Assembly: GCA_030691545.1 (NCBI GenBank)
Contig: JAUYEE010000058.1
Span: 2,041-66,040 of the forward strand
Direction: 5' to 3'
Length of the DNA stretch: 64,000 bases
Source of the DNA: a bacterium
GTDB taxonomy: Bacteria; Auribacterota; JABMQX01
Below, piece by piece: positions 21,541 through 27,043 of the stretch (positions within the stretch are counted from its first letter, which is position 1; every line of letters starts with the position of its first letter). Below the pieces are notes generated by a model. It searched no databases. It was not told the DNA's origin and saw only the letters and a program-made list of their open reading frames with translations. The translations under genes and the position numbers were made by a program.

Positions 21541-23871
21541 ATGAAGCAGTCGCCGAATTTTCTGCATCTGTTTCTCGCCGCGTTGTGTCTTGTCAGCGCC
21601 TCTCTGCCATCGGGGGCGCAGCCTGCAGTACCCATGCTGATCAACTACCAGGGGGAGCTTAAATCACCAAGCACGGGCGAGCCAGTAGCCGACGGCACGT
21701 ACGAGATGCTGTTCAGGGTCTATGACGTTGAGTTCGGCGGCACGCCGCTATGGGTCGGGACCCACTCCAGTCTCAACGGCAACCCGGTCGAAGTGACGGG
21801 CGGTGTTTTCCATGTCGTTCTTGGCTCAGGGACCGGAAACTCTATGGATAGTTCGATTTTCAACGGCGCGGACAGGTGGTTGGAAATCCGCATCGGGATG
21901 CAAACGCTGGAACCGAGGCAGCGGATAACCTCTGTCGCCTACTCAATGATTGCGGAAAACAGCCGCCTTCTCGACGGCAAAGAATCTTCGGAATTCGCCG
22001 CAGCAGGGCACCCCCATTCCGGTGTTGACATCACTTCCGGCTCGGTCGCAGAAGGGAGAATTGATTCAAGCATCGCGAGGGACAGCGAAGTTGATTCAAA
22101 GATCGCCAATCATGGAGCGATTGCCGATGCCCATCACCCCAAGACAACAAGTTTCACGGAATTGACCGATGCTGCCGCGGATTCGCAAATACCAACGGGT
22201 ATCGCGCGGGACGCAGAGATTATGCCGACCGTCCTGGCGAACGACGGAACGGGGAGCGGCCTCGACGCGGACACAATTGACGGAGCCGAAAGCGCGACAC
22301 TGGAGGAGTCAGCGGAGATTGATGCGGACATCGCTGCGCACACGGCTGTCAGCGACGCCCACCACACGCGATATACGAATGCCGAAGCGGTTGCTGCAAT
22401 GGGCGCCAAGTCTGACGCGAATCCCCTGAATCACGACAAGACGACGAGCCTCCCTTGGGGAAGCATCACGTCTATACCCGCCGGATTCGCTGATGACACG
22501 GATGACGATACGACCTACTCCGCCGGTGCGGGACTTAACCTTGCCGCGACTACTTTCAGCGCGCAGTTCGCGGGGTCAGGGGCCGCCAGCACCGTGGCTC
22601 GCTCGGACCACGACCATCACGCCACGTACGTCAATGAGGGTCAGGCCAACAGCGTGACCTCCGCAATGGTTGCCGATGGCACCTTGAACAGCGCGGACCT
22701 AAACGATGGCGCGGTAATAACGAGCAAGATTCTCAACCTCGCGGTCACGACGGAGAAGATCGCCAATTCGGCTGTCACGACGGAGAAGATCGCCAATGGC
22801 GCCATCGAGAACGTGGATGTCAGCGGTGCGGCCGCTATTGCGGGCACCAAGATTGACCCGGACTTCGGGTCCCAGAACATTGTCACGACAGGGAGAATCG
22901 GCGCCGGAACAAGCAGCCCGGCAACCAAGCTCCACGTCTCAGGCGGCATGGTGAGTGTGTATAGGGACGACGGTGTCACTGCGGGCGAGCACGAGCTTGC
23001 TCGCTTTGAAAGGAGTGAGACAACCAGCTACCCGGGAATCCAGTTGGGCTATCGCGCCAACGGCGTAGGCGTTACAGGCGCATATCTTCGGGGAGTGGGC
23101 GCCGGAGGAGACCTCCAATTCGGCGCGGGAGCAGTCCCCCAGGCGATGACAATAGGCAGTGGCGGCAATGTGGGGATTGGAACGACGAGCCCGAGCGGGA
23201 AATTTGAGGTTGTCACGACCCCCGGTCAGGATAGAGTCGTGATGGGGCAGGGGGAGATTGTCACAGATAACGTCGCCGCCTCGACGGCCCGATACGTGGT
23301 TGCCGTCGCAGGCGTGGGGTATTGGGGGCTGGGAAAGACACACACGGGAAACAATAATTTCCACATCGTCAACTATGCGAGCGGCGGCCGCTGGGATATG
23401 ACCATCCGCAACGACAACGGAAATGTCGGCGTCGGCACTACGTTTCCCCAGGAGAAATTAGACGTGAACGGGAACGCCAGGGTGGCGGGTGATCTCACCG
23501 TCGTGGGAACAGCCACCTTCGGCGGGGTGACCATGGGGAAGATTTACTTGGCGACCAGCGGGACGATCTTGTCAACCGACGGTGGGACCAGGGTACTTTA
23601 CTGGGACGCCACAAATAGTGAAATCGAGCTTACCAACACCTCCGGGGATTGGCTCGATTACTGGTGGCAAGCCCAAAAGGGAGCGACCACCTCCGGCAAC
23701 TCGGGGGCCACGGCTACCGGGACGTCCAACGTGGCAATCATCTCCGGCACGAACAGCAACGACTACGGCTTCGAAATTCATTTCGGGCAGGCAGATAGCA
23801 CGGAGGGCTGGTGCTCGGTCTGGCTGCAATACGCCAACAGCACGCTCGTCGGGCACTACATCAAGTATTGA
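21541..23871 (+). CDS. Secreted tail-fibre-like protein A (776 aa), no S74 domain
   Basis: Signal peptide, then a PMLINYQGEL...YEMLFRVYD...LW domain and His-rich DAHH repeats. Also AVTTEKIAN tandem repeat, GNVGIGTTSP shaft motifs and a unique C-terminal domain. Confidence 0.75.
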   Translation: MKQSPNFLHLFLAALCLVSASLPSGAQPAVPMLINYQGELKSPSTGEPVADGTYEMLFRVYDVEFGGTPLWVGTHSSLNGNPVEVTGGVFHVVLGSGTGNSMDSSIFNGADRWLEIRIGMQTLEPRQRITSVAYSMIAENSRLLDGKESSEFAAAGHPHSGVDITSGSVAEGRIDSSIARDSEVDSKIANHGAIADAHHPKTTSFTELTDAAADSQIPTGIARDAEIMPTVLANDGTGSGLDADTIDGAESATLEESAEIDADIAAHTAVSDAHHTRYTNAEAVAAMGAKSDANPLNHDKTTSLPWGSITSIPAGFADDTDDDTTYSAGAGLNLAATTFSAQFAGSGAASTVARSDHDHHATYVNEGQANSVTSAMVADGTLNSADLNDGAVITSKILNLAVTTEKIANSAVTTEKIANGAIENVDVSGAAAIAGTKIDPDFGSQNIVTTGRIGAGTSSPATKLHVSGGMVSVYRDDGVTAGEHELARFERSETTSYPGIQLGYRANGVGVTGAYLRGVGAGGDLQFGAGAVPQAMTIGSGGNVGIGTTSPSGKFEVVTTPGQDRVVMGQGEIVTDNVAASTARYVVAVAGVGYWGLGKTHTGNNNFHIVNYASGGRWDMTIRNDNGNVGVGTTFPQEKLDVNGNARVAGDLTVVGTATFGGVTMGKIYLATSGTILSTDGGTRVLYWDATNSEIELTNTSGDWLDYWWQAQKGATTSGNSGATATGTSNVAIISGTNSNDYGFEIHFGQADSTEGWCSVWLQYANSTLVGHYIKY

Positions 23872-23900
23872 CAAAACCTTCTTACGTGAAAGGAGTAAAG

Positions 23901-26549: not shown

Positions 26550-27043
26550 AAGGGATACGCAACCATCTGCTTTTCTCCGTAGTCGTCGTCTGCCTGGCGG
26601 CGATGGGAAATGTCACAGCGCAAAGCTCGGCGAGCTATGAACTCACGCGCTCCGTCATGTCCGGCGGGGGAACAACCTCAACCTCGGCGAGCTATGAGCT
26701 GACAGGCACGCTCGGTCAGCCGTCGCCGGTGGATGTTTCGGATAGTGCCAACTATAACCTCGGCTCCGGCTTCTGGGGCGCGACGGTCAAGTTGTTCACC
26801 GTCGCCATCGAGAGCATTTCCTACAGCATCGCAGAAGGAGTGAGGGTCGCGTGGCAGAGCATCGCCGGAGCATCCTACACTGTCTATTTCACCGAGGATT
26901 TGATGGATGTCTGGACCGCCCTGTCGTCGTTCACCGGCACAGGTAGTCTCATGGAATGGCTCGACGATGGAAGCGAAACGGGCACACCGCCGACTGTCGC
27001 CAGCGTCCTGAAACGCTTCTACCGCTTGGGTGGTCAACCCTAA
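26546..27043 (+). CDS. Small secreted partner protein (165 aa) with SYELT repeats and a C-terminal W..Y.VY...W..FYR domain
   Basis: ATGA overlap with fibre B and a signal peptide. SASYELTRSVMSGGGTTSTSASYELTGTLGQP, ending VRVAWQSIAGASYTVY...KRFYRL. Confidence 0.8.
   Translation: MKGIRNHLLFSVVVVCLAAMGNVTAQSSASYELTRSVMSGGGTTSTSASYELTGTLGQPSPVDVSDSANYNLGSGFWGATVKLFTVAIESISYSIAEGVRVAWQSIAGASYTVYFTEDLMDVWTALSSFTGTGSLMEWLDDGSETGTPPTVASVLKRFYRLGGQP

Follow-up and report, generated by a model that had tools for sequence, protein, structure and literature searches.

Positions 21541-27043 of the DNA analysed here (the window, a stretch of 64,000 nucleotides from an uncultured bacterium of the Planctomycetota-Verrucomicrobiota-Chlamydiota (PVC) type) are occupied by three + strand open reading frames (ORFs), genes A, B, and C, that form one cellular operon. 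Genes A and B encode large secreted fibres that, to judge from their sequences, almost certainly belong to the superfamily of mosaic adhesive trimers (MAT), as ordinary members from a new lineage rather than as a new class; gene C encodes a small secreted partner and is translationally coupled to B. What would MAT fibres need such a partner for? On balance, we think that C is a trans-acting adaptor: it would bind the constant N-domain of the fibres and anchor or export them through a sorting domain that belongs to this lineage. What keeps MAT fibres attached to the cell was left unanswered by Caulton et al. (2024; PMC10769870), and a 2026 review still gives no MAT anchor. A bolder version, put forward here tentatively, makes C the missing MAT mounting subunit, in which a docking module of ~50 residues, shared with Bacteroidota mini-proteins that carry a type IX secretion system (T9SS) tag and perhaps with the pilin PamT, would be joined to a tail that is swapped by lineage, here an undescribed sorting domain found on >100 secreted proteins per genome. 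If true, the lineage-swapped tail implies an unknown export or anchoring pathway in a PVC-type family.

MAT-type fibres A and B

MAT proteins were described in Bdellovibrio bacteriovorus as a signal peptide, a conserved β-rich N-domain of ~130 aa, and a trimeric mosaic fibre (Caulton et al., Nat Microbiol 2024, PMC10769870). In strain HD100, their tips are of the S74 type in 13/21 and non-S74 in 8/21 proteins; Bd3182 represents the S74 type, and Bd2133, Bd1334, Bd2439, Bd2734, and Bd2740 are non-S74 (PMC10769870). The N-domains of A and B are homologous to these: hhalign aligned the N-domain family of this window with 12 B. bacteriovorus MAT N-domains at a probability of 99.1% (E 1.6e-18, 122 columns). 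The 12 were taken from the 17 MAT genes that score above the cut-off of NF053851 (Bdello_MAT_N) in a B. bacteriovorus genome (YOA24), which was found via a primer sequence in the supplement of PMC10769870. NF053851 is also the one NCBIfam match for both fibres (38.3 bits, E 1.1e-9 for A; 30.9 bits, E 2e-7 for B); its curated cut-off of 60 bits is reached by neither A nor B, nor in any of 41 related genomes. A phmmer search with residues 27-170 of A against 1.84 billion cluster representatives recovered 21,870 proteins at E<=1e-3, 3,158 of them at E<=1e-10, and in the best 150 of the 21,870 the domain mostly starts at residue 25-60, right behind the signal peptide. With an N-domain family this large, a conserved partner would matter for the question of how many uncultured bacteria carry exchangeable adhesins on their surface.

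The two fibres are paralogues: aa 12-254 align at 61% identity (E 2e-101), and past that point the sequences are unrelated. The common part holds the INYQGEL motif and a His-rich stalk, in which H157, H159, H191, H198, and H199 are present in both proteins; this bears out the original prediction, made from the DNA letters, of two related fibres with a common N-terminal part and different distal parts. The same prediction went on to propose a domesticated surface fibre or adhesin with exchangeable tips. A cell-owned, tail-fibre-like adhesin with a constant N-domain and exchangeable tips is what the comparison supports; as a new kind of protein the proposal falls away, as it restates the published MAT family (PMC10769870). 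Because the N-domain is homologous to that of Bdellovibrio MAT proteins, and because Supplementary Table S3 of PMC10769870 already includes MAT examples from the PVC group, the Fibrobacterota-Chlorobiota-Bacteroidota (FCB) group, and Omnitrophica, A and B are best regarded as new members of a published kind. The genome holds six N-domain paralogues, two in the window and four on contig C352, whose distal parts differ; on contig C260, a partner gene has the C-terminus of a seventh fibre in front of it.

Fibre A consists of a signal peptide (aa 1-26), a MAT-type N-domain (aa 27-160), the shared His-rich stalk to aa ~254, and a unique distal part with a non-S74 tip, which is also present in a sister genome. 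A Pfam scan of A gave no match and no S74 domain, a sequence search against the PDB gave no match, and a PHROG tail-fibre family matches aa 325-445 (E 3.5e-5). Fibre B follows the order signal peptide, MAT-type N-domain, shared stalk, Gly/Ala-rich head repeats like those of YadA and UspA1 (15 units of the ATVAGG type between aa 326 and 680), S74 chaperone, and coiled coil. The end that had been predicted for B is confirmed: SDRNLK (aa 771-776) opens a Peptidase_S74 domain, GPVAQD lies farther on, and a heptad-like tail closes the protein; at the other two loci of this genome, the fibre before the partner gene has a comparable coiled-coil tail. Three features bear on the oligomeric state, namely the UspA1-head repeats, which are typical of trimeric adhesins, the S74 domain, and the coiled-coil tail; they are consistent with homotrimeric, surface-displayed fibres.

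The N-termini of A, B, and C each read as a basic n-region, a hydrophobic core, and a small-x-small motif before Q26/Q27, typical Sec signals that support Sec export of all three products, as was originally proposed. There is indirect support besides: for the fibres, in that the N-domain begins near residue 25-30 in most of the best 150 of the 21,870 representatives, and for C, in that the cleavage context and Q26 are invariant across 39 C homologues.

One fibre outside this genome has an unusual tip. On a related metagenome contig (L186:560-1837), a 411-aa secreted protein combines a MAT N-domain with a C-terminal Hcp domain (PF05638, the tube protein of type VI secretion systems); a partner gene follows 1.2 kb downstream. 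PMC10769870 does not include such a tip among those it gives for MAT proteins.

The coupled partner and its two halves

The start codon of C overlaps the stop codon of B as ATGA, with GGGAGG 6 nt 5' of the C ATG, and C is thereby translationally coupled to B, as predicted. This arrangement is not peculiar to the window: the genome has three copies of C, each overlapping the stop codon of a fibre gene. A protein search recovered 109 close homologues (57-94% identity, nearly all ~166 aa), all of them from metagenomes or metagenome-assembled genomes (MAGs); the nearest named MAGs are labelled 'uncultured Verrucomicrobiota bacterium'. The survey that had been proposed at the outset, of how often the INYQG domain and the small SYELT protein occur together, found C behind a fibre gene in 13/13 informative loci, three in this genome and ten in related MAGs, with stop and start mostly overlapping, and found the pairing again in Bacteroidota loci picked by a small-protein motif (see below). 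An N-domain protein precedes the partner wherever upstream DNA is present (L019, L020, L021, L023 (twice), L027, L182, L185, and L186), and two apparent exceptions in sister genomes are contig breaks, one with a fibre array meeting a contig end and the other with the partner at a contig start. Because the tips of the fibres that precede the partner vary (S74, non-S74, and one Hcp-like), the N-terminal region is the sole constant element of these fibres. A functional link between fibre and partner is likely on this evidence. Literature searches found no published description of a coupled partner gene, which is apparently undescribed.

Behind its signal peptide, C is made of two very different halves. 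The first is a module of 53 residues, QSSASYELTRSVMSGGGTTSTSASYELTGTLGQPSPVDVSDSANYNLGSGFWG, with three SxSYxL-type units. It is the most conserved part of C, with a mean column identity of 83% among 26 homologues, which argues for a specific binding surface, and is predicted to be disordered in isolation (pLDDT <35). The module also heads larger secreted proteins in other families of the phylum (L040, G026:C54; L041, G017:C3; L042, G049:C31; L043, G050:C85); these are open frames of 488-617 aa, one of them with LamG-like repeats by eye.

The second half is an 87-residue domain with the consensus ... W.S..G..Y.V.Y.DDL..W ... WLDDG ... RFYRL, which AlphaFold2 (AF2) models as a six-strand β-sandwich. 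Foldseek against the PDB gave generic Fn3/Ig similarity only (TM <= 0.52, best E 0.02), and neither Pfam nor NCBIfam has a model for this RFYRL domain. Yet it is anything but rare: a profile search finds it on 119 ORFs of the genome (median ORF length 741 aa), one copy per protein, and it ends no more than 15 aa from the stop in 115 of the 119. There are 82-140 copies in each of five family genomes, 4-7 in a sister family, and 0-6 elsewhere in the phylum. Its carriers include β-helix proteins with 'choice-of-anchor Q' and a VWA protein with 'choice-of-anchor X', and the domain follows these; the six fibres of this genome lack it (0/6). A domain that is strictly terminal, single-copy, and highly multiplied on secreted proteins behaves as a signal for sorting or anchoring would, probably one peculiar to this PVC-type lineage, and the chief ground for proposing that C anchors or sorts the fibres is that it shares its C-terminal half with ~119 other secreted proteins. 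As the domain has no Pfam or NCBIfam model, its abundance points to an uncharacterised sorting route. A weak further copy lies in the window at ~44164-44307 (-).

Among candidates for a cognate enzyme, a PorU-like C25 peptidase of 939 aa is encoded on another contig of this genome (C163:8640-11459; NF033707, 255 bits versus a cut-off of 420), with orthologues in 3/5 family genomes. It was rejected as a strict sortase for the RFYRL domain, being missing from two family genomes with 101 and 140 domain copies.

A proposed adaptor for MAT fibres and its alternatives

Does the same partnership exist outside this lineage? GTDB genomes were scanned for DNA encoding TQGFQQP, a choice made without reference to fibres, which gave at least 120 loci, most of those listed from Bacteroidota. 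The motif is present in 74 ORFs from the 80 loci that were analysed; a typical one has a signal peptide, the pattern 'AQSLSPQVIxSxGG...SxTxGE...LTQGFQQP', and a C-terminal domain that matches the T9SS sorting-tag model TIGR04183 above cut-off in 4/4 proteins scanned. A MAT-N protein lies within the 8-kb stretch in 25/49 module-bearing Bacteroidota loci analysed, mostly adjacent and on the same strand. When a hidden Markov model (HMM) of the Bacteroidota module was run against 52,162 six-frame ORFs of the genome studied here, the sole matches at E<=1 under default filters were the three partner genes; the alignments are in register and span the whole module, with weak E values of 0.6-1.0, and these genes are still the top three with filters off. 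In the reverse search, 8/10 top matches among 3,028 ORFs were module ORFs. Profile against profile, hhalign gives the C module and the Bacteroidota mini-protein module a probability of 84.5% (E 7e-6, 44 columns), in contrast to 2.6% for the two kinds of C-terminal domain. Homology of the module across phyla is likely but not proven. Literature searches found no publication on Bacteroidota T9SS-tagged mini-proteins beside MAT-type fibres.

Another possible relative is PamT, the predicted tip pilin of a Pam pilus of candidate phyla radiation (CPR) type (bioRxiv 2026, PMC13278184; NCBIfam NF058579); the pam operon is reported to be consistently accompanied by 'a tail fibre-like protein' (PMC13278184). 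Of 39 C homologues, 38 weakly match the first ~96 positions of NF058579 (best E 4.5e-8), and within the genome this model matches only the partner copies at E<1e-4. C itself stays far below the cut-off (30 versus 240 bits) and is aligned to model positions 8-96 of 241 only. Unlike C, PamT is 241 aa long and has a truncated Ig-like domain for donor-strand exchange, a part that the C match does not include, and no Pam chaperones or pilins are encoded in the fibre operon. The similarity to PamT is a lead, not membership.

How might the three proteins work together? In the adaptor reading, A and B would be exported by Sec and would face the cell with their constant N-domain of ~130 residues and shared stalk, while their different distal ends would bind different ligands. 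B would fold with the help of its C-terminal S74 chaperone, which, as in its family, would then cut itself off before Ser771 (S771), freeing the last 112 residues. C would be exported separately from the fibres; its module, disordered alone, would bind the constant N-terminal region of the fibres, possibly by β-strand addition, and with three SxSYxL units it could serve all the chains of a trimer. The C-terminal β-sandwich of C would bring the complex to the cell surface or tether it there. The idea is testable because the partner design recurs with different tails: the module should bind the N-domain whatever the tail.

Several observations weigh against such an adaptor. The AF2 model of whole C, computed with 39 close homologues, is unusable (pLDDT 39.5), with only the C-terminal domain folded well, and the case for binding of C to the fibres is made by synteny. 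Fibres outnumber partners by at least 7:3, and one partner would therefore have to serve several fibres. The case for module homology across phyla is built from individually weak scores (E 0.6-1) and a profile probability that is moderate. No fibre is seen in the short pieces of DNA retrieved around the larger module proteins, and the module may serve more generally as a docking tag and not for fibres only. B. bacteriovorus YOA24 gave no match at E<=10 to either module profile despite its 17 MAT genes, so that the partner is not a universal requirement or is too diverged to detect. The RFYRL domain has no detectable relation to T9SS sorting domains, represented in the hhalign comparison above by the last 85 aa of 41 Bacteroidota module ORFs, and C, which has no Pfam or NCBIfam match to TIGR04183/Por_Secre_tail, lacks the C-terminal domain expected of T9SS type A cargo. 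Cognate machinery for the domain was not found in the genome: the PorU-like peptidase is missing from two family genomes rich in the domain, and SprA (TIGR04189) gave no match in a search of this genome made without a positive control.

Could C instead help to build the fibres? In this account, the fibres are of the MAT type, and C acts in the periplasm in assembly or quality control, or else is a small accessory subunit of the distal end, like phage tail-fibre assembly proteins. The order of a fibre followed by a small coupled gene indeed resembles phage fibre/Tfa pairs, all three partner genes of this genome follow fibres that end in a coiled coil, and a module predicted to be disordered is what many chaperone-like binders have. 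However, the partner follows fibres with very different C-termini in related MAGs, including non-S74 and Hcp-like ones, S74 fibres bring their own chaperone, and the homologous Bacteroidota gene is placed upstream of the fibre genes, its product bearing a secretion/anchoring domain; moreover, a periplasmic chaperone would have no use for a C-terminal domain common to 119 secreted proteins. We consider an assembly role unlikely.

An equally improbable account is that C is an independent small surface protein, such as a minor adhesin or matrix protein that uses the RFYRL pathway, which merely shares an operon with the fibres, its likeness to the Bacteroidota proteins being convergence of low-complexity β-strand sequence. 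The weakness of the individual cross-phylum HMM scores, the larger module proteins with no fibre in the DNA fetched, and the lack of a module match in Bdellovibrio would all fit. It is harder to reconcile with synteny in 13/13 informative loci, where stop and start usually overlap, or with the same pairing in an independent phylum, at 25/49 loci chosen without reference to fibres. Convergence would also have to produce three partner genes as the sole matches at E<=1 among 52,162 ORFs, and in the part of C that is most conserved (83% column identity).

Finally, it is very improbable that the genes are remnants or accessories of a phage, a tailocin, or an extracellular contractile injection system located elsewhere, with the fibres as cytoplasmic structural parts, as the PHROG tail-fibre matches and the S74 domain, typical of phage tailspikes, might suggest: all three proteins have Sec-type signal peptides, a signal peptide directly precedes the N-domain in most of the 150 top-ranking representatives among 21,870, six paralogues are spread over two loci, no capsid, sheath, baseplate, or integrase gene or other phage-like gene lies near the operon, and the flanks are housekeeping genes both here and in relatives (hisS and hemC in L182), which upholds the original view that the operon has no phage context.

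Gene structure, neighbourhood, and known systems

The features of the operon are collected in the table. The frame of gene B opens at a GTG (23811), but its true start is almost certainly the ATG at 23901, 29 nt past the stop of A and 5 nt behind an AAGGAG. A promoter had been predicted before the operon; there is a consensus match 64 nt 5' of gene A, and the promoter stands as a candidate by its pattern.

Features of the fibre-partner operon (positions in the window)
Feature	Position	Strand	Basis
Promoter candidate, sigma-70-like, TTGCCC-17-TAGAAT, TG extended	21449..21477	+	Consensus scan, pattern match only
Gene A (fibre A), 776 aa	21541..23871	+	ORF call
Fibre A N-domain (INYQG ... PRQRITSVAY)	21619..22020	+	phmmer, hhalign
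Gene B (fibre B), 882 aa	23901..26549	+	ATG start with AAGGAG at 23890-23895
Fibre B N-domain, MAT-type	23979-24380	+	NF053851, A/B alignment
UspA1/YadA-head-like repeats of B	24996..25709	+	phmmer vs PDB: UspA1 head 3pr7 E 3.1e-19, 3ntn E 8.6e-4
Peptidase_S74 domain of B, aa 771-821	26211..26363	+	PF13884 E 6.5e-11, 42.8 bits vs cut-off 22
Coiled-coil-like tail of B, aa ~825-877	26373..26531	+	Heptad-like reading; weak Spectrin match 825-877
Gene C (small partner), 165 aa	26546..27043	+	ORF call
C signal peptide	26546-26620	+	Sequence reading
C module, aa 26-78, three SxSYxL-type units ending GTLGQPSP and LGSGFWG	26621..26779	+	Alignment
C-terminal domain of C (... WLDDG ... RFYRL), 87 residues	26780..27040	+	AF2 pLDDT 93.1, pTM 0.80

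The operon is surrounded by genes for a GH5/β-helix protein, a DUF1559 pseudopilin, a beta-CASP RNase, TolB-like proteins, an AIR-synthase-related protein, and Mfd. The prepilin-type DUF1559 gene (20452-21294, -) has a counterpart on contig C260 of the same genome (C260:1062-1856, -), and such a gene adjoins 2/3 of the fibre-partner loci of this genome, which has 26-34 of them in all; as a component of the system it was rejected, with adjacency at 0/11 related loci, and because it is missing there the pseudopilin is not a conserved part of the system. Two features of the window are explained by its composition. G+C rises to 0.657 at 24001-26000, versus ~0.58 elsewhere, because of the Gly/Ala-rich UspA1-like repeats of fibre B and not because of foreign origin; and a 1148-aa ORF (16822-20268, +) antisense to the real 1134-aa β-helix/GH5 gene (16894-20298, -) is an artefact, because antisense frames are stop-poor in GC-rich DNA, and similar shadow ORFs lie over fibre B.

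Which known systems does this operon resemble? Like phage S74 tailspikes and fibres, such as the K1F endosialidase and the T5 L-shaped fibre, fibre B has a Peptidase_S74 with SDxxxK at its C-terminal end; unlike them, the fibres of the window have signal peptides, a chromosomal, non-phage context with multiple paralogues, and an N-terminus with no virion-attachment domain. Trimeric autotransporter adhesins such as UspA1 and YadA share the head-like repeats in the middle of fibre B (3pr7, E 3e-19). However, a Pfam search of fibre B found no match to a YadA anchor or a C-terminal β-barrel translocator, and B ends instead in S74 and a coiled coil and begins with the MAT domain.

With Bdellovibrio MAT proteins the fibres share their overall design. 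In both, a signal peptide is followed by the conserved β-rich N-domain of ~130 aa and by a long mosaic stalk of phage-fibre and adhesin-head modules, the tips are of S74 (SDxxxK) and non-S74 types, and there are multiple paralogues per genome and no phage context. The UspA1/YadA-head repeats of B also match the 'YapH-like' annotations that are mentioned for Bdellovibrio MAT proteins (PMC10769870). There are differences as well: the only cut-off missed is that of a Bdellovibrio-subfamily model (38 and 31 versus 60 bits), the Bdellovibrio N-domains bear an extra Cys-containing insert, and the host, an uncultured bacterium of the PVC type, shows no sign of predation. Also, a small partner gene is coupled to the fibres here, and none is described for MAT in PMC10769870.

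For that partner, a close parallel is found in the Bacteroidota mini-proteins. They differ from C in their C-terminal domain, which is of the T9SS type, in gene order, with the partner gene upstream of the fibres in Bacteroidota and downstream here, and in the details of the module, where C has three clear SxSYxL repeats before a GFWG end and the Bacteroidota proteins have a TQGFQQP end. In their design, however, the two are alike: the mini-proteins are small (~160-190 aa), have a signal peptide followed by a module of ~45-55 aa, xRxV(I/M)xSxGG ... T(L/V)G(Q/E)P ... (T/S)(Q/G)GF, and end in the standard surface-sorting tag of their lineage, and they adjoin fibres that lack that tag. The C-terminal domain of C would be another tail, besides the T9SS tag, on the same small partner.

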